Shown here piece by piece: positions 229-37,145 of a DNA stretch of 64,000 bases; position 1 is the stretch's first letter, and each line of letters starts with the position of its first letter. This DNA comes from a virus (lineage: Duplodnaviria > Caudoviricetes): the IMG/VR virus record IMGVR_UViG_3300027740_000003, positions 32,001-96,000 of that record. One strand, written 5' to 3'. Both the position numbers and the translations under genes were made by a program. The notes beneath the pieces were generated by a model, which searched no databases, was not told the origin of the DNA, and saw only the letters and a program-made list of their open reading frames with translations.

Positions 229-429
229 CTACTCGACACAGATTTTTGCAATTAATGCTTTCAACGCTTCTTCCTCAGATTGATACAATGTAGTTTCGGC
301 AACCACCTTTCCTCCTATTTCAATAGAGGCTCTCCAACCAATTTTGTTAGCAAAAGCACACTTATCAATGCAGATATCGTCTACATGGCAATCAAATAAT
401 TCAGCAATTGTTTTAAGAAGATCTTTCAC
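229..429 (-). CDS. hypothetical protein
   Basis: 66-aa ORF overlapping the stop of the ABC ATPase gene. Confidence 0.6.
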   Translation of the reverse strand: MKDLLKTIAELFDCHVDDICIDKCAFANKIGWRASIEIGGKVVAETTLYQSEEEALKALIAKICVE

Positions 430-1229
430 GACATGTAGTCTTCAATTTCTTGAACCATTGATGTGAACTCTGGAGATCTTTTCATCTTTCTATTTCTTTC
501 TAACGGCAATGGAGAGACAAACTTCTTGGTAATATTCGCCGGCTTGCCGCCCATAACATAAATGTCATCACCAAGATATACTGCCTCCGAGATATCATGC
601 GTTACCATGATAATTGTAGGCTCAATGTGAATCCAAATCTTGGCTAACAAATCCTGCATTTGAGTCCTAGTCTCAATGTCTAATGCTCCAAAAGGTTCGT
701 CCATTAACAATATTTTAGAATCGTAAGCAAGACTCCTAGCAATTGCAACTCTTTGTAATTGTCCTCCAGATAGATTAGGATACTTTGCAAATTTGTTCTC
801 CTGGCCCTCTAATCCAACTTTGACAATCATCTCCATTGCTTTTTCATTGCGTTCCTTCTTTGGAACACCACGATAACGTAATCCTAAAGAAACATTGTCT
901 AGGACCGTCATGTGCTCCAATGAAGAATATTTTTGGAATACCATTCCTACTCTGTCATCCTCCTTGCGGGGCCTCCCACAAATCAAAACTTCACCAGATG
1001 TAGGGCTTCTCAAACCTGAGATATATGAAAGGATATGCGTTTTTCCAGATCCAGAGGCCCCAAGCACAACAATGAACTCACCTTTGCCTGGCAAATCTTC
1101 AATAAGAAGATTCAGTCCATCGATAACAACATTCTCTTTTCCGTCCTGATAATATACTTGGCGAACATTTTTCAGCTCAACAAGATCGGGAAGCTCCGTA
1201 TTAATCATCTCTACAGGTTGTGTTGTCAT
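426..1229 (-). CDS. ABC transporter ATP-binding protein, NitT/TauT family
   Basis: Walker A GASGSGKT, Q-loop VFQ, signature LSGGQLQR, Walker B/D-loop LLMDEPFGALD, H-loop VTHD. Confidence 0.95.
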   Translation of the reverse strand: MTTQPVEMINTELPDLVELKNVRQVYYQDGKENVVIDGLNLLIEDLPGKGEFIVVLGASGSGKTHILSYISGLRSPTSGEVLICGRPRKEDDRVGMVFQKYSSLEHMTVLDNVSLGLRYRGVPKKERNEKAMEMIVKVGLEGQENKFAKYPNLSGGQLQRVAIARSLAYDSKILLMDEPFGALDIETRTQMQDLLAKIWIHIEPTIIMVTHDISEAVYLGDDIYVMGGKPANITKKFVSPLPLERNRKMKRSPEFTSMVQEIEDYMS

Positions 1230-1238
1230 ATATACCTT

Positions 1239-2024
1239 TTAAACATATTTATATGGGAAAATTGTTTTGTCAAGCAATTGAAACAGTTTATCTTGAATGA
1301 ATCCAACAAAGACAATCACAAACAATAGGGCAAATACTTTGTCTATCCTGCCTTGCCGAGCACAAACAAACAACATTCCACCGATTCCTCCTGTGTTATT
1401 TACCATCTCGGCAACAATAACATAGGTCCATGATATGGCAACCAGAACACGAATGTCATTCATCAGCTGGCCAATAACATGAGGAAAGAAAACCGTCCTG
1501 AACATCTGCCATCTGTTTGCTGACAGAGTAAAGGCCGTTTGTTGATATACTTCCGGAACCTCTAAAACCCTTTGAACAACAACAGGCAGAAGATAAACCA
1601 TGATTCCGAAAGCCAGAAACTGAACCTTCATCGTGTTGTCAATACCAAACCACACAATGAACAGCCCCGTCACAGCAGTTAGCGGTATAAACCTAATGGA
1701 GTCTATAGACCTGCTAAACATGCTCTTAAAGATCGGAAACAGCCCAATCAGGAAACCAATTGGCAAACAGATTGCAATAGCTTCTATGTATCCCATTCCG
1801 TTAAGATACATGGAGTATATGAGATTCCTTACCATTGCGTCTTTGAAGTGTAGGTCTGGCAAAGAAGCAACCACTGACATAGGAGACGGCAGCAACTTGT
1901 CGGACACAACGCCAATTGAGCTAATCAACCACCAGGTTCCTAAAAGAAGAAGGATACCGGCAACCTCCAAGGCTGCCGATACCCTCTTGTCTAGGATCCC
2001 TCTTATCGAGAAAAGGGTTTCCAT
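1239..2024 (-). CDS. ABC transporter permease, NitT/TauT family
   Basis: About 6 hydrophobic helices, EAA-like loop (QQTAFTLSANRWQ), VIVAEM motif; lies between the binding-protein and ATPase genes. Confidence 0.92.
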   Translation of the reverse strand: METLFSIRGILDKRVSAALEVAGILLLLGTWWLISSIGVVSDKLLPSPMSVVASLPDLHFKDAMVRNLIYSMYLNGMGYIEAIAICLPIGFLIGLFPIFKSMFSRSIDSIRFIPLTAVTGLFIVWFGIDNTMKVQFLAFGIMVYLLPVVVQRVLEVPEVYQQTAFTLSANRWQMFRTVFFPHVIGQLMNDIRVLVAISWTYVIVAEMVNNTGGIGGMLFVCARQGRIDKVFALLFVIVFVGFIQDKLFQLLDKTIFPYKYV

Positions 2025-2032
2025 TTTATTTT

Positions 2033-3580
2033 TTAGTTCTCCAGGATTTGGAAATCTGTTCTTCGGTTTCTGGCACGACAGATTTCAGTATCATCGCTGC
2101 ACTGTGGCTTGTCAGGTCCATTGCCTACCACTACAAACCTGTTCTGATCCATCTTATGAGTCTCCACAAGATAGCTTACAACAGTCTGTGCCCTGGCCTT
2201 GCTGATCTTCCTATTGACATCAGCACTTCCTGTAGAATCCGTATTGCCCTCAATTCGAATTCGTGATGTGGGGAATGCCTTTGCTTGCTCAACGAACATC
2301 ATATCAATGATTCCTTTGGCATTCTCGTCAAGCTCAGAGCTTCCATGGGCAAAAGACACCCTAACCGGCTTACTAGCAACCGCTTTTGCCGCTACTTCCA
2401 CCTTGGTTGGTGCTGTAAATGCAGCCTTCTTCTCAGCAACCATGCCAATCTCCTGCTCTAAGTTTATCTCTTTGATGAAGGCTGTGTCTACAATCTGAGC
2501 CCAAGGCAGAGATCCGCTGGCCAGATTAAGCTTTCCATATACCGTTGTCATCTTCTCATACAGATCCTTGCCAGTGACGCCAGTATAGCCAGGATTCAAG
2601 CCAAAGAAGTCCAGGTTGTCTCCATATGTAGTAAGCCTAACATTATTGATTGCTCCAATACAGAACTCAGCATCAACCGAAGAGCCCAGTCCATCAGCAA
2701 GTACCTTGGCCGCCTTTGCCTTCACCTCATTGGAAGCATTAATTTCTGCCGCTCCTTTTAGCCAACCACGAACAAGCTTCACAAGCTCTGGCCTGCGTTT
2801 ATTATAGGTAGATTCCTTGATAAAGAACCCATCAGAGATGATATGAGTGGCTTGTTTGGTATTCACAAGGATTTTTGCTCCTGAAACAGCCTGGACACAA
2901 GCGGCATCATCAGGGCTCCAAACCACAGCGGCATCAACTTTGCCAGCCTTGAATGCTGCGGCAGCATCAATTGCTGAGTTTACCTTGACAACATTAACAT
3001 CCATTATTGATAGGCCTGCCATATCGAGCATCCAAAGCAAGAATGTATGTGATGGAGTCGCTTCGGCCACAGCAATCTTCTTTCCAGCAAGATCACCAAC
3101 AGCACCAACATTACCCTTGGTCACGATAGCGTCTCCACCGCGGGACCAATCAGCTTGGAAAAGCCACTTAACCGGCTCACCAAAACTACCCGACTCGGTT
3201 GGAAAGGAATCTATGGTAGACCACATCAGATCCATCTTGCCTGCCTTAAAAGCAGCTCGAGAGGCAGCAAAATCATCCATTACAGAGAAGTTAACACAGA
3301 TGTCGTCTTGATGATATCTCGAATTGGGATTATCTTTAAACCCTCCGTTCCACCACTGGCCACCGATATATCCTCCCCACGTCACCACCCCAATCTCTAA
3401 GCATTTATTCGTGGTTGTAGAAGCTGTTGCAGAAGCAGAGCCTCTCATCATACCAGAAACATCCTGAGCCTTATCTCCTTCTGGAAGAACCAGGGGACGA
3501 AGGAAAATGATGCTACCAACAATCGCGGAAGCAACAAGGACCGTGATTGCAATCTTACCAGCTGGTTTAATTTTTGCCAT
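2033..3580 (-). CDS. ABC substrate-binding protein (NMT1/THI5/SsuA-like) fused to a C-terminal OmpA peptidoglycan-binding domain
   Basis: N-terminal membrane anchor; DWSRGGDAIV, LAGKKIAV and GKVDAAVVWSP motifs; C-terminal IEGNTDSTG...N..ISKARA...NRRTDF OmpA signature. Confidence 0.9.
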   Translation of the reverse strand: MAKIKPAGKIAITVLVASAIVGSIIFLRPLVLPEGDKAQDVSGMMRGSASATASTTTNKCLEIGVVTWGGYIGGQWWNGGFKDNPNSRYHQDDICVNFSVMDDFAASRAAFKAGKMDLMWSTIDSFPTESGSFGEPVKWLFQADWSRGGDAIVTKGNVGAVGDLAGKKIAVAEATPSHTFLLWMLDMAGLSIMDVNVVKVNSAIDAAAAFKAGKVDAAVVWSPDDAACVQAVSGAKILVNTKQATHIISDGFFIKESTYNKRRPELVKLVRGWLKGAAEINASNEVKAKAAKVLADGLGSSVDAEFCIGAINNVRLTTYGDNLDFFGLNPGYTGVTGKDLYEKMTTVYGKLNLASGSLPWAQIVDTAFIKEINLEQEIGMVAEKKAAFTAPTKVEVAAKAVASKPVRVSFAHGSSELDENAKGIIDMMFVEQAKAFPTSRIRIEGNTDSTGSADVNRKISKARAQTVVSYLVETHKMDQNRFVVVGNGPDKPQCSDDTEICRARNRRTDFQILEN

Positions 3581-3614
3581 TATTTATTGTTCTACCTTTC
3601 TTTATCTTCTTAAT

Positions 3615-4631
3615 TCACTTAAGAAAAATCTTTGAAAACTCATTTGAGCTTGCTTCTGTTTCAGCTTGATATTGTTCAGCCTCAACTAAAGATGCCGAAG
3701 AACTATCGACACGAACCTTGCCAGTTAGATCTCCTGCTTTGTAAGAAAGGATTTCTGAACCGTTCTTTTCCCACTGTTCTAACAGAGCCAGGCCGTCCTC
3801 ATTGAACACACCGTTCTGCAAATCCATGGACAGCATAAAGTCTTTGCTGGTATCCATGAACCGATCCATTTCACCAAGTTTCATAGCAATATCATTGGCG
3901 GTGTATTCCATTGTCTGCTCAAACATTGCTTTGGCTTTATCGCCTTCAATAAGAGCCTCCGCACCCTTCATTGCTTTAAAAGAAGCCGTAATGCTCTTAT
4001 ATTCTATCTCACGAATATAAACCTCATGCTTCGTATCTTCGTACAGATCATTAAGATTGCTTTTCATCTTGCTTAGAATTCTTAGAATGTTTTCAGTCTT
4101 ATCAAGAATTACTGAAAGTTTCTCGGCAAAATGCTTTTCTCGGGCTGCCATATTGGCTTTTAGAGCCGCCTGATTTGGTTGCCCAGCTTTCTTGGCGGCA
4201 TTTGCTAACTTAATGTATTGCTCAATGTTCTGTAGTCTCTCAGTAATATTTCTCTCAAGACTAACTTTCTGGCCGCTAACTTCTTTGATATGCTTTTCAA
4301 CTTTGGCCAAACGTTCTTGCATTTCTTCTAGATAATTTTTTAGAATACCAATTGGGTCAACCGCAATAACCCAGCCAGTAAGCCAGCGCATTGCGCTTTG
4401 GAACAAAGAGGAACAAACGAACCTAAACTTATCATTCATCAACAGAGTAAAGATGGCAAACAGTCCGGCCCCGAGCAAGCTGGCATAAAGAAGATTAGAA
4501 AGGATAACGATAATTACTGGAAGCAGATACCAGCAAGCAACACCAGCACCAACAACGCCTGCTCCAATGAAAATTAGGCCAGTATTGCCCTCAGGCTTCT
4601 CGAAAAAACTCTTGATTTTAGGCTGTTCCAT
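3615..4631 (-). CDS. Membrane-anchored coiled-coil protein, PspA/IM30 (ESCRT-III)-like
   Basis: Two N-terminal TM segments, then DPIGILKNYLEEMQERL (resembles the PspA helix DPxxxLxQxIxDM) and a long heptad region. Confidence 0.6.
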   Translation of the reverse strand: MEQPKIKSFFEKPEGNTGLIFIGAGVVGAGVACWYLLPVIIVILSNLLYASLLGAGLFAIFTLLMNDKFRFVCSSLFQSAMRWLTGWVIAVDPIGILKNYLEEMQERLAKVEKHIKEVSGQKVSLERNITERLQNIEQYIKLANAAKKAGQPNQAALKANMAAREKHFAEKLSVILDKTENILRILSKMKSNLNDLYEDTKHEVYIREIEYKSITASFKAMKGAEALIEGDKAKAMFEQTMEYTANDIAMKLGEMDRFMDTSKDFMLSMDLQNGVFNEDGLALLEQWEKNGSEILSYKAGDLTGKVRVDSSSASLVEAEQYQAETEASSNEFSKIFLK

Positions 4632-4638
4632 ATTTTCC

Positions 4639-5277
4639 TTACTTAAGGTATGTTTCCATTTTCTGTTGGTCTTGTTGCAATCTTGCTAGAATATCTGCCT
4701 TGGTAGCTTCAAAAGCTGAAACCTTTTGCTGCACAGCGATTCTTTCCTGTGAAACCTCAGCCAACATATTTTCTCTACCAATACGAAGTTCCTGAATCTC
4801 TTTCGTAAGTTTTTCGATCTCTTGGGCTTTTTGCTGCATTGTATTGTTTACATCAGCAATTTTCTTCTCCTTAGTAGCAATTTCTGCATTAGGAGAGGTT
4901 TCAATGAACTTATTGAACTCAACGGCTTTTTTATTTACAACGCCGACGTAGTGAGTGATTGAATCAACCAGAGATTTTTTGTCTACATTGCCCATAACCT
5001 GAGCTGTGGCGAACACCGCTTGGTATTTTTGCTCCTCTGTCATTGGCATCCCTGCCATTTTTGCCAGGGAGTCTTTGAATTCAAAGTAATCGAAGCCGGG
5101 CAGATTACCCGCAACAATTGCTTCTTCAAAAATCTTAACAATTTCAGGATCGGCTTGTCCAGGAATAACGGGAACCACAGCAATGGGGGTCGGCTTTTCT
5201 GGTGCTTTAGTTTTTGGTGCCTCTTTCTTTTCCTCATCACCGGTTTCGACAAACAGACTAGTAAATTTTTTGAACAC
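4639..5277 (-). CDS. Coiled-coil hypothetical protein, first gene of the ABC/PspA-like cluster
   Basis: Low-complexity N-terminal linker, LPGFDYFEF motif, C-terminal heptad repeats. Confidence 0.75.
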   Translation of the reverse strand: MFKKFTSLFVETGDEEKKEAPKTKAPEKPTPIAVVPVIPGQADPEIVKIFEEAIVAGNLPGFDYFEFKDSLAKMAGMPMTEEQKYQAVFATAQVMGNVDKKSLVDSITHYVGVVNKKAVEFNKFIETSPNAEIATKEKKIADVNNTMQQKAQEIEKLTKEIQELRIGRENMLAEVSQERIAVQQKVSAFEATKADILARLQQDQQKMETYLK

Positions 5278-5287
5278 TATATTTTAC

Positions 5288-5557
5288 TCACTTTCCTTCT
5301 GGAACATCGGCCAGTCTTGTTTTTGCGTTATGTATTGCACACTGAGCTTTGTCTAAAAGTTTTTTAAAGTCGGGAGCTTGTATAATTACTTCAAGAATAT
5401 CGTCTTGATCTATTGTTCCGTTATAATTAATAGAAATAGTTTGTTCTAGTTTTTGATCTAGAACGACACAAACTTTAATACCGTTGATATCAACGGATCC
5501 AAGTTCTATTGTTTTTGTTGTAGTATTTTTTGTGGTGGACACTGTTAATTTGCTCAA
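5288..5557 (-). CDS. hypothetical protein (start uncertain)
   Basis: 89-aa ORF with TTG start. Confidence 0.55.
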   Translation of the reverse strand: MSKLTVSTTKNTTTKTIELGSVDINGIKVCVVLDQKLEQTISINYNGTIDQDDILEVIIQAPDFKKLLDKAQCAIHNAKTRLADVPEGK

Positions 5558-5671
5558 TTAGGGGATGGCAACCGCCGCCAGTGGTAAAAAACTAAAGACT
5601 TAACAAAATGAGGAATTAACATTTTTATCCAACTTTACTTTAACGAACCATCTTCATATAACAAATACATC

Positions 5672-5689
5672 TTGAATTCCGGAATTCAA
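5672..5689. repeat. 18-bp perfect palindrome TTGAATTCCGGAATTCAA
   Basis: Read directly; a second TTCCGGAAT copy follows at about 5692-5700. Confidence 0.9.
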
Positions 5690-5776
5690 ATTTCCGGAAT
5701 CATCTTTTTAAGATTTTGCTTATTAGTTTCGATTCCCGTTTTCTCAATACAAAAAGGATCAGAAAATTTAATCATA

Positions 5777-26178: not shown

Positions 26179-26679
26179 TTAACAATTAAGCTGTAGTTCA
26201 TATAGGTCTTTCATAATTGGAGAATAGAAACATTTAGATTTAATAATATTTGTAATTCTTTGTTTTGCCGAAGTTTTAGACAAAGAGTTAAGATGTATCA
26301 TCTCTTGTTTAACAGCACCAATAGCATCTTGTGTTAAGATATTAATGCCTTTAGCGACATTGCACCATTCACACATAGTTTGCAGATTAGACAATACGTT
26401 TTCCCCACCAAAATAAACCGGAATAATATGATCTTTTGTCATCAAAACAAAAGACCCATCATCTCTTTTGGCATATAGATTAAAGAATGGAGCTCCATCG
26501 GTTTCGACATGTTTTTGCAGTTTGATTATAGTTCCTTTAATTCCACAACATACACAGCAAGGATTTCTTTTAAAGCATTGTAGTTTTAAAGAATTTCTGG
26601 ATATTTTATATTTGCCGTATTTAAATCTGTTTATTGATTCGAAGATTGATTCAGCACTATAAGTTTCTAGAGTAATCAT
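26179..26679 (-). CDS. HNH endonuclease
   Basis: CVCCG ... TKDHIIP..GG.N..SNLQTMCEWCN..KG. Confidence 0.9.
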   Translation of the reverse strand: MITLETYSAESIFESINRFKYGKYKISRNSLKLQCFKRNPCCVCCGIKGTIIKLQKHVETDGAPFFNLYAKRDDGSFVLMTKDHIIPVYFGGENVLSNLQTMCEWCNVAKGINILTQDAIGAVKQEMIHLNSLSKTSAKQRITNIIKSKCFYSPIMKDLYELQLNC

Positions 26680-26682
26680 ATA

Positions 26683-26844
26683 TTATGGGCGGGGGAATAT
26701 TGTTTCCAAGTTTTCAATAAGCCCAATAACCCAAGGGGCAAAAATACTTTCAACCAAATAGGTGTAAGGTTGAAGAGGAGTTCCTATGCAATAACTTCGA
26801 ATTATTCTACTCAATGATTCTTGTTCTTCATTTGTCAGTTTCAT
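26683..26844 (-). CDS. hypothetical protein (53 aa, not in the ORF track)
   Basis: MKLTNEEQESLSRIIRSY..; GGAGG upstream. Confidence 0.55.
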   Translation of the reverse strand: MKLTNEEQESLSRIIRSYCIGTPLQPYTYLVESIFAPWVIGLIENLETIFPRP

Positions 26845-27076
26845 TTTCCAAACCTCCATTAGGACAGGTCCAGCCTTGAATATAGCCTTTAGGATATTTA
26901 TATTTCAATTCAATTAGCACGGCTACAAGATTGTCATAATCATTGCTAGAAACAATTAGACCAAAACGTCCAGGCTCTTGAACAACACAGAATCCTCTTA
27001 CAAGTAGAAATCCAATTATTTTATTGAAAACCCTTTTAGTTGTTTCTACATGTGCTGAGTATTTTTTATTCTTCAT
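26828..27076 (-). CDS. hypothetical protein
   Basis: Start likely MKNKKY at 27076. Confidence 0.55.
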   Translation of the reverse strand: MKNKKYSAHVETTKRVFNKIIGFLLVRGFCVVQEPGRFGLIVSSNDYDNLVAVLIELKYKYPKGYIQGWTCPNGGLENETDK

Positions 27077-28290: not shown

Positions 28291-28575
28291 CTAGATTAGA
28301 TCGATTTCTTTCATTTGATAGAATGTCAAATGTAATTTTTGAGAAAACTCAACAGCATTAACAATCAATTTGTTATTATCTACTTCTACATCTGAGTCTT
28401 TTTTAATTTGGATTAATTCATACTCGTCAAGAATGAGAAGCAAATCCTCATCAGGATCTTTCAGATGATCTTCAGAAATAGTAGCATTGCCCACAAATTT
28501 TGTTCCATTACAAGTGCAAACTGCAACAGTTCCAGTTTGAGGAAAAACTTTGTTAAAAATATCAATTGCCTTCAT
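28291..28575 (-). CDS. hypothetical protein
   Basis: First gene after a promoter. Confidence 0.7.
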   Translation of the reverse strand: MKAIDIFNKVFPQTGTVAVCTCNGTKFVGNATISEDHLKDPDEDLLLILDEYELIQIKKDSDVEVDNNKLIVNAVEFSQKLHLTFYQMKEIDLI

Positions 28576-28600
28576 TTGCCATCACTCCCGTCAGAAGCAC

Positions 28601-28628
28601 AATATAAGGCTCACTTGGCCGTTGTCAA
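28601..28628 (-). promoter_or_regulatory. sigma70-like promoter
   Basis: TTGACA-N16-TATATT. Confidence 0.8.
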
Positions 28629-28647
28629 CAACTTCGGCCGGCCGGAC

Positions 28648-28893
28648 TCACTTGGATACTTTAGCTTCCTGTTTTAGCCGCTCGCCAAACTTAATCAAAT
28701 CATCTGCTAATTCTTCTAATTGTTTTTCATTGTTAACCCAGATAAAATCTGCACGACATGGGTTCTCAATACAAAAATCACCTTCCGGACCTTTGCTTAT
28801 AAAGTTTGCCAGGAAGAGCTTCTTAAAATTAGAATAGTTCTGATGGCTTGACATTGTTTTGTCTTTCTCAACAATCAAATTACTGCAAGACAA
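28648..28893 (-). CDS. hypothetical protein
   Basis: Tiling ORF; start probably the second Met. Confidence 0.6.
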   Translation of the reverse strand: MSCSNLIVEKDKTMSSHQNYSNFKKLFLANFISKGPEGDFCIENPCRADFIWVNNEKQLEELADDLIKFGERLKQEAKVSK

Positions 28894-29735
28894 CTATAGA
28901 ATTCTTCTGGTGAAGTTATAATACTTGCCGTGCCACCATCATTTAATTCAATTATTGTCCAAGATCCGTTGGTTGTTTCAGCTACATCAACGGCAAAAAA
29001 CATACTGGAAACAAAAGGAATAATATTTTCTACAAATTGTTGTGGTGGTTTTTCTGAATTAGAATAATCTCGACTGTCCCAGCGAATACTTTGTGTTAAT
29101 ATTTTCCCTTTATAAACGAACAAACGATGCTCATTTGGTAGAGGAAGATCCGTTTTAGGATGTTTTCCACTGCATTTCAGAGGAACATATTCTCTAAAAA
29201 CAAGCCCTCCTTCTAGATCACAAGATTGCAATCGAAGAAAATTGTTCACTACCCGTTTAATATCAACGGAACTAGATGCAGACGGTATATAACAAGCATC
29301 CTCCCATTCATAACACCGACTTTTTACATAGTCTTTAACTATAAGAGGTTTATCTCCAAACTCAGAAGCAAGTTTACTAACAATCTCGTCTAAATCAAAT
29401 TTAGACCCGGGAAACCAAATTGATTTTGGAGTATTTTTTACACCTAATCTAGGATACCAACAAGGGAACTGATTACAGAATTGGTATTCTTCTAGTTTGG
29501 TAATTAAATTCTTTCCACAATTATTAACACCATCAGCCATTTTTGCATAGTTGTCTAACGATAAAATCCATCCACGATAAAGAACATCTCCTGGGCCAAT
29601 CGGAAGATTATTTTTTCCACCATCACATACTAAACCAACATCAAAACCCGCCTTCTTGGCCGCCTCTATTTCTTTCAAAAAGAACTGGTCTGGATTCTTT
29701 TTAAGAATAGGATCTGTAGGAAATAAAATATACAT
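28875..29735 (-). CDS. ATP-grasp domain protein (R2K/DUF4343-like)
   Basis: LYRGW, LIVKDYVKS, VFREYV, EHRLF, FFAVDVA, IIELNDGG. Confidence 0.85.
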   Translation of the reverse strand: MYILFPTDPILKKNPDQFFLKEIEAAKKAGFDVGLVCDGGKNNLPIGPGDVLYRGWILSLDNYAKMADGVNNCGKNLITKLEEYQFCNQFPCWYPRLGVKNTPKSIWFPGSKFDLDEIVSKLASEFGDKPLIVKDYVKSRCYEWEDACYIPSASSSVDIKRVVNNFLRLQSCDLEGGLVFREYVPLKCSGKHPKTDLPLPNEHRLFVYKGKILTQSIRWDSRDYSNSEKPPQQFVENIIPFVSSMFFAVDVAETTNGSWTIIELNDGGTASIITSPEEFYSCLAVI

Positions 29736-29742
29736 TTTTTAA

Positions 29743-29910
29743 CTACCTATTAGAAATCAACATCCTTGCTGCGCCTTCAGTAGAAAGACCGTTATCAAAC
29801 AACCCTCTAATTCTTTCGTCATTATTGCAAACATCAGATAAACATATTCCAGCTATAAACTGAACCTGTTTGTCTAACTCCGCTTTCCACTTAAGATATT
29901 TTTTAATCAT
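29743..29910 (-). CDS. hypothetical protein (55 aa, not in the ORF track)
   Basis: MIKKYLKWKAELDKQ..; 4-bp overlap with the upstream gene. Confidence 0.55.
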   Translation of the reverse strand: MIKKYLKWKAELDKQVQFIAGICLSDVCNNDERIRGLFDNGLSTEGAARMLISNR

Positions 29911-30677
29911 ATTGTAAATACTTTTGCAATAGCTGGGTTTCTATATTCAGCTGCCCCGACAAACATTATCATATTATGAGACACGCGATAGGTATATGGC
30001 TTGTGCCTATGTCCTGCAAGGATTGTAAAAGAAGTTTCTGGGAAATCAGCAGCAATATCTGCTAGTTTATTTCCCATTGAGATGTGAACGAACCAAGGAT
30101 CCCATACTCCATCTTTTCTTTCAGGGTCTGGAAAAGGTGGCACATGAGTTGCAAAGTAGATATTTTTGTATTGCTTTGCAATATTTCTGATTTGAAAATC
30201 AGCCTGTTGTGCCAACGTATCAGCTTCTACTTTTGATAGCCTAATGATTTCATCTTTATGGCAAAATTTAAATTCTTCAATTACATGATGGTCGGTCATA
30301 TCTAAAAGATAAGGATTTTCCCCACAACGACAATCATACCATCCATCTGAGCCAACAAGAATTGTTTCATTGTTTAAAACGACTGGTTGGCAAGGAAGAT
30401 AGAAAAGGTTTTCCGTATATTTGCTTATCTTTTTTGCAAGCTCCCTGGTTCCACTAATAGAATTTCCATAACAACAATGATTGCCATTTACAAAATAAAT
30501 AGGCTTCTCAAATCCATCAGCAAGCTCACACAAATTATACTCTAAAGAAGTAGATTCTGCTGTGTCTCCAGTAATAACCAACACATCACCGTGTTTAGAC
30601 AGTTCTTTTCCGAATTCTTTAGGGAAAGATGGAGGTAGAAAATTAAGATGTAGATCTGTACAATGAATAAGTTTCAT
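29907..30677 (-). CDS. Calcineurin-like metallophosphoesterase (Icc/CpdA-like)
   Basis: DLH, GD, GNH, THVPP, AGHRH motifs. Confidence 0.88.
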   Translation of the reverse strand: MKLIHCTDLHLNFLPPSFPKEFGKELSKHGDVLVITGDTAESTSLEYNLCELADGFEKPIYFVNGNHCCYGNSISGTRELAKKISKYTENLFYLPCQPVVLNNETILVGSDGWYDCRCGENPYLLDMTDHHVIEEFKFCHKDEIIRLSKVEADTLAQQADFQIRNIAKQYKNIYFATHVPPFPDPERKDGVWDPWFVHISMGNKLADIAADFPETSFTILAGHRHKPYTYRVSHNMIMFVGAAEYRNPAIAKVFTI

Positions 30678-30844
30678 TTTCTAAATTTTCTTTTCTCATC
30701 ATCGGTTAGAACTGGATAGCTTTTGATTTCAAAAGCAACATTCTCTCCTTTAATGCTTGCACGAAGATCAAGTTCATACTGTGTACAATCAGGACAACGA
30801 CATTTACAATCATAATTGTGAGGAATATAATTTTGGAACTGCAT
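30674..30844 (-). CDS. small Cys-containing protein (56 aa, not in the ORF track)
   Basis: HNYDCKCRCPDC; 4-bp overlap. Confidence 0.55.
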   Translation of the reverse strand: MQFQNYIPHNYDCKCRCPDCTQYELDLRASIKGENVAFEIKSYPVLTDDEKRKFRK

Positions 30845-30866
30845 AATAATATTCTTTTTTATTGCT

Positions 30867-31283
30867 TTATTTTGGAACAGGAAACAAAATGTATCCGTTA
30901 TCTACTAACAGTTTTCTTATTCTATCATATCCTGTTCTGTCTTGAAGAGCTTTAAGAATTATAACTTGGCTTTCTTTTTTTGGACCGGACCAATAAATTG
31001 CATCGTGAACTAGGTTTAATACATATCTTTCTTCAGAGACTCTCGAAGCTTCACATCTAAACTCTAATTCGTTTAATAAATCTTCTTGGTTCAAATAAAA
31101 TAGTTCACTATAAAAACCGTCTGTCAAATGATGGATTTTGTGAAAAAACTCTTTGGCCGACAAATGATCAATAGGCTCAAGTTCACCACAAATCTTGCAT
31201 CTCCAATACCTAGACTTGAATGTTCCAAACCAGAAAATTATAAGTTTTCTTTTAATCCTAGAAAACATTCTTTTACCAAACAT
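30867..31283 (-). CDS. hypothetical protein
   Basis: CKIC motif; start likely MFGKR. Confidence 0.6.
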   Translation of the reverse strand: MFGKRMFSRIKRKLIIFWFGTFKSRYWRCKICGELEPIDHLSAKEFFHKIHHLTDGFYSELFYLNQEDLLNELEFRCEASRVSEERYVLNLVHDAIYWSGPKKESQVIILKALQDRTGYDRIRKLLVDNGYILFPVPK

Positions 31284-31285
31284 TA

Positions 31286-31579
31286 TTAAAACTCCAGAAT
31301 ATCTAGAATATCTTCTGTATCCCAACAGTCCCTATATGATCTGCTAATCGGATTATAAATCTCTCGATATGTTTGAGGATGATTACGTTCCGAATCTGGC
31401 TCAGTCCATTCTGACAATTCCTCAACCGTTTTTCCAACCAACCCAATTTTAGAATATGCTCCGCCAAGTTTTTGAACATCAACAACTTTATTATTAGCAA
31501 TTGTTAAAATGAATTCCGAATGGCACTCATCGTCCAGCACATTGTCAGAAATCCTAGCTTTAATAGTTGCTGTTCTCAT
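31286..31579 (-). CDS. hypothetical protein
   Basis: Tiling ORF. Confidence 0.65.
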   Translation of the reverse strand: MRTATIKARISDNVLDDECHSEFILTIANNKVVDVQKLGGAYSKIGLVGKTVEELSEWTEPDSERNHPQTYREIYNPISRSYRDCWDTEDILDILEF

Positions 31580-31956
31580 GTGTTCCTTTTATAAATTTTA
31601 ACTGGAAGAATTTGTTTCTTTCCATCAACTACGACTTCTTTTTCCTCAATATAAAATACTAAATCGGCCGCCACGGTTGCCGCAACGGTTGGTTTTATTT
31701 CTTCCTGCACTTGTTCTTTAGGATACTTGTTTTTGCGTCCTCTAGAATCCTCATCTGATAATGTTTTATAACCAAGACAGGCCCGAATAAATTCTCCAAA
31801 CTGGAAATTGTCCAACGCGGAATCAGGAAAAACCCTGCCGTTTATTTCAACAAGAAGATCTGGAACAAAATTCTTAACTTCTTCTTTTGTTGCATTTTTC
31901 GGCGGTTTGGTTAATCCCAAGATGCCTACGTTAAACAATCCAGCGGTTTTTATCAT
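31576..31956 (-). CDS. hypothetical protein
   Basis: Tiling ORF. Confidence 0.65.
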   Translation of the reverse strand: MIKTAGLFNVGILGLTKPPKNATKEEVKNFVPDLLVEINGRVFPDSALDNFQFGEFIRACLGYKTLSDEDSRGRKNKYPKEQVQEEIKPTVAATVAADLVFYIEEKEVVVDGKKQILPVKIYKRNT

Positions 31957-31965
31957 GCGTTCCTT

Positions 31966-32709
31966 TTAATTTTTCAAAGTATTCTTGGTTAGAGATACAT
32001 TATTCCCGGCAGAAATTCCTGCTCGATAAGCATCACCATTGACATTGCTTCTGCTTAACTGCTTGGTTTTAGAAGAAATTCTATTAACATATGCTGCAAC
32101 ATCTTTGTCTCTATTATCAATAATAGCAAGGGCCGTAGTTGCATTGTCTAAAACAGCTTGTTGTTTTGCTTCAACGGCCGCTGCTTTAAGCCTTTGACAA
32201 ATACTTGCAGTGCAACCAAGTTTAAAACTTGTTGCCCAGTTCTTTCCTTCTCCTCTGGCCAGATCTCCTGGATTATAAACCTTTGCAAGGTGTTCAATAG
32301 TATCTCTAATTGAACAATAAAAAGCCCCACATAGAACAGCATCACTCTCTGTTCCAATTACTTCAAGGTGTTGAAGCCTTGCTCTCCTATAAGATCCAGG
32401 TTTATATCCAAGGTTATCTGACGAAATCAACACACGACATCCGTTAATAACACAAATAGCATTAAGAAGAGCAATTTTCCATTGAGCAATCTTTTGCCCA
32501 CTTTCTGGACCATTATTTTGTTTAATAACGTTATCCGTATTAATGCTATTTGCAGGATTATTTTCCACATCCACCAGTGAGACGCGATATTTGCTCATTA
32601 GCATTTGAGCATGATGTGAGGCATTTGCTGCTTCGGCTTCTGTTCCAGCCCTTTCTGCCAAAAACAAAAGGTGTTTGATTTTATCAATAATAGAAGTCGT
32701 GTCAGTCAT
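31966..32709 (-). CDS. DUF2786-domain protein
   Basis: IDKIKHLLFLAE..TEAEA..A..HAQMLMSKY; SFKLG; start moved to ATG at 32709 downstream of the promoter. Confidence 0.8.
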   Translation of the reverse strand: MTDTTSIIDKIKHLLFLAERAGTEAEAANASHHAQMLMSKYRVSLVDVENNPANSINTDNVIKQNNGPESGQKIAQWKIALLNAICVINGCRVLISSDNLGYKPGSYRRARLQHLEVIGTESDAVLCGAFYCSIRDTIEHLAKVYNPGDLARGEGKNWATSFKLGCTASICQRLKAAAVEAKQQAVLDNATTALAIIDNRDKDVAAYVNRISSKTKQLSRSNVNGDAYRAGISAGNNVSLTKNTLKN

Positions 32710-32716
32710 GAGATAC

Positions 32717-32744
32717 AGTTTAACCACGGTGCGGGCCAGGTCAA
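32717..32744 (-). promoter_or_regulatory. sigma70-like promoter
   Basis: TTGACC-N16-TAAACT. Confidence 0.7.
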
Positions 32745-32749
32745 GGGCG

Positions 32750-33649
32750 TCAGTTCATTTTTTTGTCGTTTTTAAAAATCCTATCAAGACCAAGTCTGTT
32801 AATAACTTTTTGCAAATCATTATCGATACCAACAAAAGAAAACTTAGCTCCTTCGCCCAAGTAAGCTGTTTTTACATTTCGTTGTATGTCAATAATTTTT
32901 GCAAGAGCTTTAAGCCAATCTTCTTGTGGACAAGCAATTCCTTGCGTAAAATCTAAAGTCGGAAATGACAATGTTTTATATTCTCTATATGACCATTCGT
33001 AAGATAGTGCAAAAGATAATATCAATTCGTTTGCTGGAACGATAATGTTAATTGGACCATTGTGATCCTTGGGCTGAAATGATCTTAAAAGACTTTGGGT
33101 CTTTACAAAAGGAAGACCATAATTCAACGCCATATTTTCTTCTTGTTGTAGACGTCTTACTAAATCAGAGTGGTATTCAAATATTCGCAATTGATCTTCT
33201 TGATCCTTTGCAAAATATGCATTAATTGCACCGGCTAATTCGTTTGCCCTTTCATAACCAATGCATACGCTGAAATTTCTAGATCCTTTTCGGAAGCCGG
33301 GAAATACCCAAGATTTATCAAACCCCTCAAAATAACATGGGCTCAAATAAAAACTTGTACCGGCCGTAATGCCAAACAGATCGTGTTCAATATTGTCTGC
33401 ACATTCGAAACTAATCTTTACATCATGGAAATTATCCCTAAGATATATTGTTCCTGCTCTGCCAGAAACCCTAATCACTGGTAGTCTAATACTTTTGCTG
33501 GTATGAGAACTAACCACTTCAATTTCATCGTCCTCTCCGGCCCAAGCTTTAGCAAAAGAAACCATTCCTGGAAAAGATTTCTCGGCCGCTCCTTTCCAAC
33601 ACATTTCTTCGCGGACTGGATTTTCTTGCACCCATTGTTCTAAATTCAT
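32750..33649 (-). CDS. hypothetical protein
   Basis: Start likely MNLEQW; GAGG upstream. Confidence 0.7.
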   Translation of the reverse strand: MNLEQWVQENPVREEMCWKGAAEKSFPGMVSFAKAWAGEDDEIEVVSSHTSKSIRLPVIRVSGRAGTIYLRDNFHDVKISFECADNIEHDLFGITAGTSFYLSPCYFEGFDKSWVFPGFRKGSRNFSVCIGYERANELAGAINAYFAKDQEDQLRIFEYHSDLVRRLQQEENMALNYGLPFVKTQSLLRSFQPKDHNGPINIIVPANELILSFALSYEWSYREYKTLSFPTLDFTQGIACPQEDWLKALAKIIDIQRNVKTAYLGEGAKFSFVGIDNDLQKVINRLGLDRIFKNDKKMN

Positions 33650-33651
33650 TA

Positions 33652-33984
33652 TTACTCGTCCTCTTCTTCGTAATCCTCGTGCCAAATGATCTTTATTTCT
33701 TTTGGAATAAAGTTCTTTTCTGAATACCAGGTCCTAACTTCCACTTTATAATTTAACGGTTCTTCTTCAAGATATGCAACAATTCGTTTGCCATGACAAC
33801 TGCGTTTAATTTCGTAATAAACAAATTCCATACCAAGGTCAGATAGGTCTAAAATCTTTTTTTTAATATGAATTAACTCGTCTTCAAAAGACACGCCTTT
33901 TAATTTATAAGTGTTGGCAATTTCTCTTGCTCGTTCTGCTGATGGCAATTTGGGCAGCTTTTCTTTTTTCCAAAAATTAAACAT
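33652..33984 (-). CDS. hypothetical protein
   Basis: Tiling ORF. Confidence 0.65.
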   Translation of the reverse strand: MFNFWKKEKLPKLPSAERAREIANTYKLKGVSFEDELIHIKKKILDLSDLGMEFVYYEIKRSCHGKRIVAYLEEEPLNYKVEVRTWYSEKNFIPKEIKIIWHEDYEEEDE

Positions 33985-33997
33985 AGTTTATTCCTAA

Positions 33998-34348
33998 TTA
34001 TGGAGCTTTCATCTTTCCAACATCCCACACTCCCCATTCTTTTGGAGCAATGGTATAATAAACTCTCTTAACCCCCTTAGCCCGAATCAGGGCTTGACAA
34101 CGGGGACAAGGCTTGGCGCTGGCCCAGGTGCCGTCTCGCAACACCCTGGCAACATAAAGAGTACAACCAGTGTCAGCCTTTCTAAGACTCCTTGCCTCAG
34201 CATGGGCCGCGGGCTGTGGTTCTTTGGTCAGCGCATTGTTGGAACTAACAAGGGCCCCGTCACGCCTTTGAATAACAGAAGCAAGACGGTAGTTCCTCTT
34301 CTGGTCCCCTCCCGCAGCAATCCTTGCAGCAATCTCAAGCAGCCTCAT
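33998..34348 (-). CDS. Zinc-dependent cytidine/dCMP-deaminase-superfamily protein
   Basis: AHAE and KPCPRC zinc motifs; GVKRVYY. Confidence 0.88.
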   Translation of the reverse strand: MRLLEIAARIAAGGDQKRNYRLASVIQRRDGALVSSNNALTKEPQPAAHAEARSLRKADTGCTLYVARVLRDGTWASAKPCPRCQALIRAKGVKRVYYTIAPKEWGVWDVGKMKAP

Positions 34349-34362
34349 AACTCCTCGCAGAC

Positions 34363-34390
34363 AACATAACTACGAAAGGCCGCCTGTCAA
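34363..34390 (-). promoter_or_regulatory. sigma70-like promoter for the deaminase gene
   Basis: TTGACA-N16-TATGTT; GAGGAG precedes the ATG. Confidence 0.8.
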
Positions 34391-34401
34391 CCCTCGCCGT
34401 T

Positions 34402-34758
34402 TTAATATTTGGCAAATGTTTTTTGAATTTTAATTATGGCGTTAGGCCATATATTATTTATTCTATCAATCTCTTCAGCAATTACTTTTACTTCTCTAAG
34501 TTTCTGATATCCTTCCACAACTGCTTTAATCGGTACAGATGCTACCGGAATATCCCCCAAATAAGCATTAACATAAGCTACAACCTCAGTGTATCTTCTA
34601 GTATAAATTTCGTTCCAAACAATATTACCTTCGCTTTCGGTAAGCAATTTAAGTACAGCTATTGGCTTATTTTTTCCGGCAAGTTTATATGCTGAAGCAA
34701 GATTGTTCGCCTCGAACATATAAATCTTGCCATCAATATAAGTTGCCTCGAACATCAT
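34402..34758 (-). CDS. hypothetical protein
   Basis: Tiling ORF. Confidence 0.65.
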   Translation of the reverse strand: MMFEATYIDGKIYMFEANNLASAYKLAGKNKPIAVLKLLTESEGNIVWNEIYTRRYTEVVAYVNAYLGDIPVASVPIKAVVEGYQKLREVKVIAEEIDRINNIWPNAIIKIQKTFAKY

Positions 34759-35744
34759 TGATCTAATAGCCTTAACTCATCAAAGATAACATAATTTGTT
34801 CCAACACAAGTATAATTTATAGCAGACAAAACAATTTTATTAAACATAACAGTTTGTGTAAAAGAAATCTGTTGACAACCATCAGCAGAAAGCTCAATAA
34901 AATCATCCGTTAACAGGTTCTGCTCCCAATATTCTCCAATGCTTTCCGGAGTATAGAAAAAGTTTCTAATAGCTAAACTGTCATCATTATACAGATCAAA
35001 ACTTACAGAGGAAAAGTTGTAAAAAGAAGGCTCGGGAGAAGTAATCCTAGAAGCATCAAGAGCAAAACACAGCTCTATACTATCAGAAGACATGGTTTGA
35101 TTAAACAAATATTCTTTGTAATTATAGATCGTACCACAGGCCGATTCTGTTTCACCAATGGCAGAAAATTGAATTATTTCACCATCCGAATTACAGGAAA
35201 CAATTGGGTTGCTTCCTTCGTTGGTATTAAGAATCCATCCGTCCAAAGAACTCATATCATCAACAACAGTATATTGATTTGTATCAGTAGCAGAACCGGC
35301 TGTATTAATCAATCCGGCAGAACCAGCAATATAAATAGAACCAGCGGCGCCTGCATAATCAAAAGATACAGAGCCGGCTAATTCAGCAGAAAATTTCCCT
35401 CCTCCAACACCACCAGTAGATTTAACCAGATGAATGTCTTCATCAATATAAGACGAAGTGGTTCCAGAGCTTCCGCCATTAGGGACAGATGGAGAACCAG
35501 AATTTTCTACAACAACTGTTCCTCCAGTATAATTTGAACCACCATTGTCAATATTAACTGTTCCTGAGGAACCGCTCTGAGCTACATTATAAATAGCCTC
35601 ACCAGAAGACCCGGCATACGTTGCTTCTCCACCATTATCTGCTGTTCCACCATTATCAGAATGGCTGATAGTAGTTAGTCCTGTTCCGGAAATTTGTCCA
35701 CAAGATAAACATAAAACAAAAGCTGCAATATAACAATTTCTCAT
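34755..35744 (-). CDS. Putative lipoprotein with Gly/Ser-rich linker and a C-terminal globular domain
   Basis: Signal ending LCLSC-G; repeated GG/SG/AGS motifs. Confidence 0.75.
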   Translation of the reverse strand: MRNCYIAAFVLCLSCGQISGTGLTTISHSDNGGTADNGGEATYAGSSGEAIYNVAQSGSSGTVNIDNGGSNYTGGTVVVENSGSPSVPNGGSSGTTSSYIDEDIHLVKSTGGVGGGKFSAELAGSVSFDYAGAAGSIYIAGSAGLINTAGSATDTNQYTVVDDMSSLDGWILNTNEGSNPIVSCNSDGEIIQFSAIGETESACGTIYNYKEYLFNQTMSSDSIELCFALDASRITSPEPSFYNFSSVSFDLYNDDSLAIRNFFYTPESIGEYWEQNLLTDDFIELSADGCQQISFTQTVMFNKIVLSAINYTCVGTNYVIFDELRLLDQ

Positions 35745-35746
35745 TT

Positions 35747-35989
35747 TTATTTTCTCGCTGGTGAACTGCTTGGAGGTTTTGATATCCTAACAGGACTCAT
35801 TCGAATGAATTTAATTTCATATTTTGAACAATACTTCTTAAAATCAGTTTCGTTGGTTTCTGGAACATCAATATCCCAATCGAAAGTTTTATCTGATAAA
35901 GATGAATATCTGTTTTTGACAGTAGCATCAAATGCATAAACAACAGTTTGAATTTTCTCAGATAATGCTTTAACGTTATACTTTACCAT
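35747..35989 (-). CDS. hypothetical protein
   Basis: Tiling ORF. Confidence 0.65.
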   Translation of the reverse strand: MVKYNVKALSEKIQTVVYAFDATVKNRYSSLSDKTFDWDIDVPETNETDFKKYCSKYEIKFIRMSPVRISKPPSSSPARK

Positions 35990-36004
35990 TTAATTAAACC
36001 TTTC

Positions 36005-36119
36005 GGGCTAAGTGTAGGATTTGAACCTACGTCTCCAAGATCCCTCTTGGGCTTTTCCAGATGCTATTCTTCTATTTCCTGGCGCAATAAAATTGTAGCA
36101 CACCTAAGCTAACTTAGCC
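36005..36119 (-). ncRNA. tRNA-like RNA with no anticodon (GGGA tetraloop), G-1:C73 His-type acceptor and an expanded D-loop
   Basis: G-GCTAAGT/ACTTAGC-C acceptor; GCTT/AAGC D-stem; CAAGA-GGGA-TCTTG; GAGAC; GTAGG-TTCAAAT-CCTAC T-arm. Confidence 0.8.
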
Positions 36120-36124
36120 AAATA

Positions 36125-36355
36125 TTATTCTTCGTAAGTAAGTTTATATTCTGTCTGTGGAGGAAACTCTTCAATCCAGTGATGTGGCTCAATGTCTTTA
36201 AGCTCATACGATTTGCTAGTTGTTGTATCAATAACAACTAGGTTGGTATTGCAGCCACCAAATTCAATACGCAGCCCTAGCTCGTCTGCTTTACAACAAA
36301 GCTCATCAAATTTTTTAAAGAACGGACTCTCTTCCAATAAGCGAAATGTAGGCAT
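36125..36355 (-). CDS. hypothetical protein
   Basis: Tiling ORF. Confidence 0.7.
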   Translation of the reverse strand: MPTFRLLEESPFFKKFDELCCKADELGLRIEFGGCNTNLVVIDTTTSKSYELKDIEPHHWIEEFPPQTEYKLTYEE

Positions 36356-36402
36356 TTTATGTTCTCGTCCTTAGCTAACTTAACCAAGATTTAGAAATTT
36401 AT

Positions 36403-36618
36403 TTATTCGTTATTAGTTGTCGTGGCGTTCTTGGGCATTTTTGCTTTGGCAATAATTTTTGCAATTCCCACAATGCTTCTTTGGAACTGGTTGCTTCCGG
36501 CTATTTTTGGAATTAAAGAAATTGGATTGCTTCAGGCGGCTGGAATTAATTTGCTTTGTGGAATTCTTTTCAAGGACACCACGACAACTGCTCCCAAAAT
36601 AACAACCAACTTATCCAT
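36403..36618 (-). pseudogene. Small membrane-protein gene whose internal segment is inverted
   Basis: Promoter, SD and ATG on the minus strand; body on the plus strand (36422-36578); re-inverting between the inverted repeats gives an in-frame 71-aa protein. Confidence 0.8.
36415..36589. repeat. Imperfect 19-bp inverted repeats (36415-36433 and 36571-36589) with a perfect 11-bp core AGTTGTCGTGG
   Basis: 17/19 match, read directly. Confidence 0.9.
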
Positions 36619-36651
36619 TTGTTTCTCCTTCTTTCATCCAACGGTCAGCAC

Positions 36652-36679
36652 AACATAAGACCTATCGGCCCCGCGTCAA
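36652..36679 (-). promoter_or_regulatory. sigma70-like promoter
   Basis: TTGACG-N16-TATGTT. Confidence 0.8.
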
Positions 36680-36830
36680 GGGCTTACCGCCTATAGAAGC
36701 ATCTTCTTTCACGGGATTTTGATTAGAATACACAATTAGGTTAAGAGGCCCGGCACTATGAACACATTTGTATTTTGCCGCAATGTAATTGTCGGTTTTC
36801 CACTTGCCAATAAAAATTATAGATTTAACT

Positions 36831-37142: not shown

Positions 37143-37145
37143 ATG

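Follow-up and report, generated by a model that had tools for sequence, protein, structure and literature searches.

Why should a very large uncultured bacteriophage carry the genes for a solute importer predicted to be fastened to its host's cell wall, together with a protein resembling the membrane-repair factor PspA? This question is raised by a 64-kb stretch of DNA (hereafter the window) comprising bases 32001–96000 of the 435,004-bp IMG/VR virus record IMGVR_UViG_3300027740_000003, which CheckV rates as complete. Near the start of the window, at 426–5277 on the minus strand, five intact co-oriented genes are separated by gaps of only 7, 34, 8 and 9 nucleotides (nt). In the order of transcription they encode a helical protein (gene 1), a membrane-anchored PspA/IM30-like protein (gene 2), a substrate-binding protein (SBP) fused to an OmpA-like domain (gene 3), an ATP-binding cassette (ABC) importer permease (gene 4) and an ABC ATPase (gene 5). 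A first-pass annotation, made from the letters of the sequence, had described this arrangement as five adjacent genes with gaps of 7–34 bp, and our open reading frame (ORF) listing of the window reproduced its coordinates exactly. By gene content and order, we find that these genes are the phage copy of a five-gene envelope cassette conserved in bacteria, which a lineage of huge phages has taken up. That the cassette serves the phage as one envelope-maintaining unit is a reading to which we give about an even chance.

The ESCRT-III superfamily of membrane-remodelling proteins is represented in bacteria by PspA and Vipp1, and work continues on what brings these proteins to particular sites in the membrane. 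In the cassette, a PspA-like protein with a membrane anchor would be wired to a transporter that is itself fixed to the cell wall. Its carriers are many huge phages and hundreds of bacterial species, among which Aquimarina and Tenacibaculum are available in culture. The cassette is thus a tractable system for studying the coupling of membrane repair to wall attachment and solute uptake, and the reasons for which large phages spend resources on their host's envelope.

A complete importer with a predicted wall tether

Gene 3 (2033–3580, minus strand; 515 amino acids (aa)) combines three elements. A hydropathy scan places a transmembrane (TM) helix at its N-terminus (aa 6–34, nt 3479–3565); this is followed by a substrate-binding domain of the NitT/TauT type, NMT1/SsuA/TauA-like (aa ~60–380, nt 2441–3403), and by an OmpA-like peptidoglycan-binding domain (aa ~405–513, nt 2042–2368). 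In Pfam the protein matches OmpA with 63.2 bits (cut-off 27.2), NMT1 with 34.1 bits and NMT1_2 with 25.1 bits, the latter two also above their cut-offs. NCBIfam adds matches to SsuA_fam (69 bits), ABC_peri_uca and YiaD/Pal-type OmpA, and the closest sequences in the PDB are SsuA and TauA, which are remote (30–46 bits), and OmpA-like domains. The SBP-OmpA fusion called in the first-pass annotation is therefore real, with OmpA and NMT1/NMT1_2 domains residing in a single 515-aa protein.

The profile of the OmpA-like domain matches solved OmpA-like domains at E 1e-22, and residues N446, T447, D448, R463 and A464, which form the N-T-D...R-A motif, are invariant in 24 sequences. The conserved motif residues of OmpA-like domains function in the binding of diaminopimelate. 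We predict that the N-terminal helix holds the gene 3 product to the inner membrane and that the OmpA-like domain attaches it to peptidoglycan, with the substrate-binding domain lying between the two.

The remaining importer components are encoded directly downstream. Gene 4 (1239–2024, minus strand; 261 aa) contains several hydrophobic segments and matches BPD_transp_1 in Pfam (51.3 bits) and SaoP, TauC and SsuC in NCBIfam (113, 81 and 72 bits, respectively). Gene 5 (426–1229, minus strand; 267 aa) matches ABC_tran in Pfam (94.2 bits) and TauB, the taurine ATP-binding subunit, in NCBIfam (185 bits), and its translation retains intact Walker A (GASGSGKT), signature (LSGGQ), Walker B (LLMDEP) and H-loop (VTHD) motifs. 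On these Pfam and NCBIfam matches, genes 3–5 encode together all three components of a complete type-I ABC importer of the NitT/TauT (SsuABC/TauABC-like) group, as the earlier annotation had held. The TauB, TauC and SsuA_fam scores lie below the equivalog cut-offs of these families and hence no subfamily is assigned.

A lead to the ligand is provided by a pairwise alignment of E. coli TauA with gene 3 (29.7 bits), in which Glu106, Asp205 and Trp176 of TauA correspond to the invariant gene 3 residues D150, D250 and W221; the Asp205/D250 equivalence is off by one residue and is located next to an indel, and SsuA contains a glycine at the position of TauA Asp205. In the TauA structure (PMC6906117), the taurine amine is bound by Glu106 and Asp205, and Trp176 makes van der Waals contacts with the ligand MES. 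These correspondences hint that the gene 3 ligand may carry an amine or other cationic group.

Gene 2 resembles PspA/IM30

The product of gene 2 (3615–4631, minus strand; 338 aa) had been assigned to PspA in the first-pass annotation, which regarded the assignment as its weakest link. The protein contains a hydrophobic stretch of 50 residues (aa 17–66, nt 4434–4583) that the hydropathy scan resolves into two TM helices, bearing out the proposed membrane anchor. Its overall layout is a short, conserved cytoplasmic N-terminus, the two-TM hairpin and a PspA-like body composed of α0–α5 (aa ~75–295, nt 3747–4409). Residues 90–210 align with positions 21–141 of the Pfam PspA_IM30 profile (PF04012) with 26.7 bits and E 5.2e-6, a score that falls short of the 33.9-bit cut-off of the family; in a whole-genome search the PspA_IM30 score was 27.3 bits. 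Among 32 members of the anchored family, 24 matched PF04012 at E<0.01, always in the same register, while Snf7 (PF03357) was matched by none of the 32 at this threshold. The E-values from our own hidden Markov model (HMM) searches refer to small sequence sets.

Family-level comparisons were more informative. We aligned, by hhalign, 73 anchored-family members from phage and bacterial loci with 30 canonical PspA_IM30 proteins from Bacteroidota genomes. The two profiles matched over 188 columns (family positions 84–287 to PspA positions 2–198) with a probability of 94.0% and E 1.4e-7, and the matched span runs from the amphipathic α0 through α5, including the conserved Asp-Pro junction that precedes α1. 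Against an alignment of two PspA sequences the hhalign probability was 1%, the comparison being informative only with the 30 canonical sequences. Reciprocal searches agreed: the canonical-PspA HMM matched 70 of the 73 family members and the family HMM matched 28 of the 30 canonical proteins. A search of the anchored-family profile against PDB sequences returned only generic coiled-coil matches, at E ≥0.08.

The AlphaFold2 (AF2) model of gene 2, with a predicted local distance difference test (pLDDT) value of 67.6, shows the TM helix block, a short helix (residues 67–88), a hairpin formed by residues 93–148 and 152–220, and two more helices. In Foldseek the best rows for this model were Vipp1 and PspA, at E 0.012, and E. 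coli PspA 1–144 (4whe) superimposed with a TM-score of 0.80 and a root mean square deviation (rmsd) of 1.6. The profile–profile and reciprocal HMM comparisons, with which the predicted fold is compatible, support the conclusion that gene 2 encodes a diverged, membrane-anchored PspA/IM30 homologue of the ESCRT-III superfamily that, strictly speaking, is not a member of the curated Pfam family; the link considered weakest has thus held. The anchored family is large; a profile search of 1.84 billion representatives, in which only full-length members were listed, gave 1456 representatives at 50% identity. A different arrangement is found in several Bacteroidota genomes (L118–L125), where a canonical pspA is followed in tandem by a second, weaker PspA-like ORF that matches the canonical Bacteroidota PspA HMM at E 1e-5 to 1e-12.

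The helical partner encoded by gene 1

In most loci, gene 1 (4639–5277, minus strand; 212 aa, GTG start) immediately precedes the gene for the anchored PspA-like protein, of which it is an almost constant companion. The gene 1 product, a soluble protein, consists of an N-terminal 'L-K-S-L-F-V' motif followed by acidic residues, a variable linker rich in proline and lysine, a helical domain and a C-terminal helical hairpin, an architecture that is conserved across the family. The hydropathy scan found no TM helix in the protein; it matches no Pfam entry and no named family, and fold and profile searches revealed no convincing relation to PspA, Snf7 or other families. We also considered gene 1 as a second PspA, but hhalign found no significant relation to either PspA or the gene 2 family and so gave no support for this candidate.

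In the Salinibacter entry of Table S3 of Ravi et al., a gene described as 'Rmar_0091-Coiled-coil' precedes the TM-anchored 'Snf7' gene (PMC11237479), and from its description and position only we infer that this is the gene 1 counterpart. Genes 1 and 2 can also occur as a pair without the importer, as on a 3.7-Mb Bacteroidota contig (L004:9401–11011). There, a double ATPase of the ABC-F type precedes the pair, and ~8 kb downstream a two-domain AAA+ protein is encoded.

The cassette is widespread in bacteria and recurs in phages

A survey of gene neighbourhoods, which the first-pass annotation had proposed, located the same gene order in bacteria and in phages. The SBP-OmpA fusion returned >3000 matches in the protein collection, many of which carry the NCBI name 'phosphate ABC transporter substrate-binding/OmpA family protein', and at least 566 species-representative genomes encode it. 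The carriers are overwhelmingly Bacteroidota (Saprospiraceae, Chitinophagales, Bacteroidales and Flavobacteriaceae); the fusion is also found in some Fibrobacterota, Spirochaetota, Calditrichota and Cloacimonadota. All five genes are present in the same order in 35 of the 51 bacterial loci with enough flanking sequence, the PspA-like gene is kept in 44 of these loci, and the permease and ATPase genes are likewise kept in 44. Cultured carriers of the five-gene order include Aquimarina sp. SS2-1 and Tenacibaculum xiamenense.

In IMG/VR, at least 22 viral contigs of 12.5–512 kb contain a full-length copy, although some of these contigs may be bacterial. The close relatives of the window copy comprise eight of these IMG/VR contigs and a group of Logan/ENA contigs, one of which is labelled as a Lentisphaeria metagenome-assembled genome and has phage-like gene content. 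Every phage-clade locus of sufficient length has the full set of five genes, and in the more distant viral contigs at least genes 2–5 are retained. Fourteen such distant contigs (L135–L149, 24–333 kb) show 40–51% identity in the binding protein and are distributed over several separate branches of the tree.

Maximum-likelihood trees of the fusion protein were built as quick searches with the best 80 bacterial matches only. In these, the window copy and 10–12 phage relatives form one clade with a Shimodaira–Hasegawa-like approximate likelihood ratio test (SH-aLRT) value of 100, and the nearest neighbour of the clade is a Fibrobacterota contig with bacterial-looking flanks. Bacterial sequences among the best 80 genome matches are at most 54% identical to the window binding protein, and the phage copies share 59–94% identity. 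Placing the viral label on the tree, with 25 viral rows, requires at least five changes, three of them forced by well-supported branches, and the cassette has therefore been exchanged several times between bacteria and phages.

A reduced form of the locus is found in Leptospiraceae (L011:8985–11563 and L012; GCA_024233865.1 and GCA_020440835.1), in which the PspA-like and SBP-OmpA genes are adjacent to each other and next to recA, with no permease or ATPase gene nearby. This two-gene pair suggests that the PspA-like and SBP-OmpA proteins constitute the functional core of the cassette. It also bears on another account of a transporter in a phage, namely that the importer takes in a sulfur, nitrogen or phosphorus source (of the sulfonate, taurine or aminoethylphosphonate type) for phage replication, while the PspA-like pair only buffers the membrane against the overexpressed complex. 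Such scavenging would fit the completeness of the importer and its intact ATPase motifs, the sulfur-scavenging SsuA/TauA systems that are its nearest characterised relatives, and the presence of transport genes in huge phages, which the main text of Yuan & Chen describes as common (10.64898/2026.10.24.761521). However, ordinary scavenging importers lack a wall tether and are not strictly linked to a PspA-like gene, the Leptospiraceae retain the pair without an adjacent permease or ATPase, and no sulfonate- or phosphonate-degrading enzyme adjoins the phage cassette. We consider this explanation unlikely.

The cassette is resident in phage genomes

The base composition of the module differs from that of its surroundings. 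Its GC content is 0.40–0.47, and 0.37–0.47 at third codon positions (GC3), compared with genome ORF means of 0.346 ± 0.054 and 0.26 ± 0.08, respectively. These elevated values made a test for misassembly necessary, as they could reflect a host fragment joined to the phage sequence during assembly or bacterial contamination of the viral record; a chimeric join had been named in the first-pass annotation as the outcome that would overturn it.

Several lines of evidence speak against such an artefact. The cassette is located 32 kb inside the contig, between phage genes. A diverged relative is represented by two independent assemblies (JGI 3300037067 and ENA ERZ27247358) that contain the same five genes and in which the flanks match as well, with a small ORF on the upstream side and another small ORF, HAD_SAK_2 and Ku on the downstream side. 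The two assemblies are collinear through both junctions, and one of them is collinear with record bases 28462–37365, again spanning both junctions, at 75–82% nucleotide identity. Between the two phages, the ratio of nonsynonymous to synonymous substitution rates (dN/dS) is 0.03–0.04 for all five genes, compared with 0.53 for the small downstream ORF, indicating that all five genes are under strong purifying selection in phages. Finally, the phage copies form a clade of their own, to which no bacterial sequence among the best 80 genome matches comes closer than 54% identity.

The ATPase gene of a related phage provides a further observation. In IMGVR_UViG_3300035208_002255 (169 kb; L014:10577–12568), the ATPase is encoded as a single ORF of 663 aa that contains an in-frame intein, inserted near the P-loop and matching Intein_splicing (50.1 bits) and LAGLIDADG_3 (56.9 bits). 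An in-frame intein at this location points to a long-resident gene that must be translated to work. Misassembly is excluded by the collinear independent assemblies, the dN/dS values, the phage-only clade and the intein in the ATPase of the relative, and we regard the artefact explanation as extremely improbable.

A covarying hairpin in the permease gene

Scans for sigma-70 promoters and terminators were uninformative, except that an RNA hairpin emerged in the 5' coding part of the permease gene (core 1950–1986, extended stem ~1937–1998, minus strand). The element is contained in the opening 90 nt of the permease ORF, right behind the binding-protein gene, and folds with −37.3 kcal/mol (z −6.1). 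It is present at the same position in 10 of 11 phage-clade loci (L002, L005, L006, L013–L016, L018, L020 and L135), among which both the nucleotides of the hairpin and the residues they encode differ. In the 14-pair consensus helix, 85.7% of the cells are paired, as opposed to 39–55% in slid controls, and 10 pairs are changed on both sides, as opposed to 2–6 in the controls; the covariation score was reached by none of 500 shuffles. No Rfam family matches the hairpin. In bacterial loci it is weaker, with a median z of −1.3 and z below −2 in 14 of 41.

Hairpins located after binding-protein genes tune output in other ABC operons. By analogy, the hairpin in the phage cassette probably tunes output such that the three upstream genes are expressed above the permease and ATPase genes.

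Genomic context of the cassette

The short spacing of the five genes and their conserved order point to co-transcription. The co-oriented run extends beyond the cassette on both sides, with a small ORF at 5288–5557, which ends 10 nt upstream of the cassette, and another at 229–429, which overlaps the stop of the ATPase gene by 4 nt. The small upstream ORF is also kept in a related phage (L002:2–232). A tRNA(CAU) gene and a TilS gene are situated just upstream, and the 219-nt interval between tilS and the small ORF (5558–5776) is the sole sizeable intergenic gap near the cassette; it contains a palindromic hairpin at 5676–5700. The transcription unit probably starts within this gap and takes in the small ORF 5288–5557.

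Beyond the cassette, the window has the character of a huge phage: almost all of its genes share one strand, most are small and of unknown function, and phage helicases and radical-SAM genes are present. The phage-like context noted in the first-pass annotation was borne out by the 435,004-bp virus record itself, with its phage helicases, Ku, tRNA and TilS genes and many small one-strand ORFs. A megablast search with the first 8 kb of the window found no match in the phage collection. Downstream of the cassette lie HAD_SAK_2 (L127:12132–12611) and Ku (L127:10607–11458) genes and then, ~5 kb from the cassette, a gene for an Apyc1-like anti-Pycsar protein with a metallo-β-lactamase fold (L127:7754–8554, minus strand; record bases 26253–27053, before the window start). 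The Apyc1-like protein matches PF23023 with 77.8 bits, against a cut-off of 50.

Counter-defence genes in the neighbourhood, of which the Apyc1-like gene is an example, raise the possibility that the cassette acts in phage–phage competition or anti-defence, either by closing the inner membrane to other phages that inject DNA or cause lysis from without, or by countering membrane-depolarising abortive infection. Membrane damage of the phage secretin or holin type is known to induce PspA, which would be in keeping with such a role. It would leave the solute-binding domain and the complete importer unexplained, however, and the same cassette is chromosomal in hundreds of bacterial species without phage context. 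We judge this role very unlikely.

A putative envelope-maintaining unit

The conserved gene order in bacteria and phages and the two-gene pair of the Leptospiraceae argue that the cassette is one functional unit, and the reading to which we gave an even chance is that this unit maintains the host envelope for the phage. The five products would work together at one envelope site. The wall-pinned binding protein would span the distance from the inner membrane to the wall and feed the importer, which may take up a small amine-bearing solute (taurine-like, possibly an osmolyte). On the cytoplasmic face at the importer site, the PspA-like protein may polymerise together with its helical partner, and the polymer would seal, stabilise or repair the inner membrane and preserve the proton motive force. 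By expressing the cassette, the phage would keep the host envelope energised and intact and its long, slow, large infection supplied. The hairpin would probably leave the permease and ATPase less abundant than the products of the three upstream genes.

A number of points weigh against this envelope-maintenance reading. The evidence for every cassette member comes from sequence and models. Gene 2 scores below the PF04012 cut-off (26.7 versus 33.9 bits), and the inference about the ligand is drawn from one weak pairwise alignment (29.7 bits) in which one residue is off by one. The Aquimarina and Tenacibaculum carriers encode a canonical PspA elsewhere in the genome, and the anchored form need therefore not do the same job. 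The elevated GC content of the module indicates that its amelioration is incomplete. Lastly, a Vps4-like or double AAA+ partner was sought in the 435-kb phage genome and none adjoins the cassette; the AAA matches in the genome are single-domain proteins at record bases 20242 and 386547, plus weaker ones, with no MIT or Vps4 domain.

A bolder version, which we regard as quite improbable, would make the cassette a self-contained counterpart of ESCRT-III in bacteria and phages. Here, the wall-pinned ABC transporter would replace the Vps4-type AAA+ ATPase as the partner that couples energy, and solute binding, or strain between wall and membrane, would act by way of the transporter to nucleate or dissolve the anchored PspA-like polymer. 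Huge phages would in this way hold the inner membrane to the wall and keep it energised, with the hairpin setting the stoichiometry of abundant structural parts relative to few transporter cores.

Comparison with known systems

Both the operon type and its occurrence in huge phages are already known. In section 18 and Table S3 of Ravi et al. (2024, mSystems; PMC11237479), PspA and a membrane-anchored divergent Snf7 are encoded in operons with a SIG+PBPB+OmpA protein, a permease and an ABC ATPase, examples being OGG56892.1 from Candidatus Handelsmanbacteria and CBH24266.1 from Salinibacter ruber; the authors proposed a link between membrane remodelling and solute transport, in agreement with our reading. 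A double AAA+ ATPase, composed of an inactive and an active domain, is an occasional partner in these operons. Yuan & Chen (bioRxiv, October 2026) reported 189 huge-phage pspA genes, 15 of them adjoining a complete ABC transporter with binding protein, ATPase and permease, as well as 667 IMG/VR phages with pspA (10.64898/2026.10.24.761521); the main text of this preprint does not mention that the binding protein is fused to OmpA or that the PspA-like protein has a TM anchor, and it is silent on the helical partner, the hairpin and the bacterial operon of origin. We found no experimental study of the cassette in the literature. New here are the covarying hairpin in the permease gene, the retention of TauA-like amine-binding residues and the intein in the ATPase of one phage.

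The window cassette shares with the operons of Ravi et al. the co-oriented genes for an anchored ESCRT-III-superfamily protein, a PBPB-OmpA protein, a permease and an ABC ATPase. It differs in that neither a second, untethered PspA nor a double AAA+ ATPase adjoins it and in that it resides in a phage, and the gene order of the Handelsmanbacteria example is also different. Further, where the anchored protein was labelled 'divergent Snf7', the window family matches PspA_IM30 and not Snf7 (32 members, E<0.01).

That the published bacterial versions carry a double AAA+ ATPase, while the window cassette has none adjoining and keeps its ABC ATPase, could be taken to mean that the cassette is a mechanical or signalling device. 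The binding protein would then sense envelope strain or a wall-derived solute, and the ABC ATPase cycle would drive or regulate assembly and disassembly of the PspA-like polymer in place of a Vps4-like or double AAA+ ATPase, with no net import. The occurrence of the PspA-like and SBP-OmpA genes as a pair is compatible with such a device. The same pair-only loci also lack the ABC ATPase, however, which argues against an obligatory link between ATPase and polymer, and BPD_transp_1 permeases are those of classical type-I importers. We deem a device of this kind decidedly unlikely.

The body of the gene 2 protein corresponds to that of canonical PspA/Vipp1 (IM30) in its α0–α5 organisation, its Asp-Pro junction and its predicted long helical hairpin. 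By contrast, gene 2 adds a conserved N-terminal peptide and a two-TM hairpin and scores below the Pfam cut-off, and the window cassette contains none of the PspBC, PspF or Lia partners. Similarly, genes 3–5 belong to the same binding-protein, permease and ATPase families as SsuABC/TauABC, and D150, D250 and W221 correspond to the TauA positions Glu106, Asp205 and Trp176. The similarity of gene 3 to these proteins is nevertheless remote (30–46 bits), its TM anchor and OmpA-like domain set it apart, and no sulfonate-utilisation genes are located nearby.

Among wall tethers, MotB/PomB, TssL, YiaD and Pal contain an OmpA-like domain with the N-T-D...R motif that is present in gene 3, and the N-terminal inner-membrane anchor of MotB resembles that of gene 3. 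In contrast to all of these proteins, gene 3 carries a whole solute-binding domain between its anchor and its wall-binding domain, and its partner is an ABC transporter rather than a stator or a secretion system.

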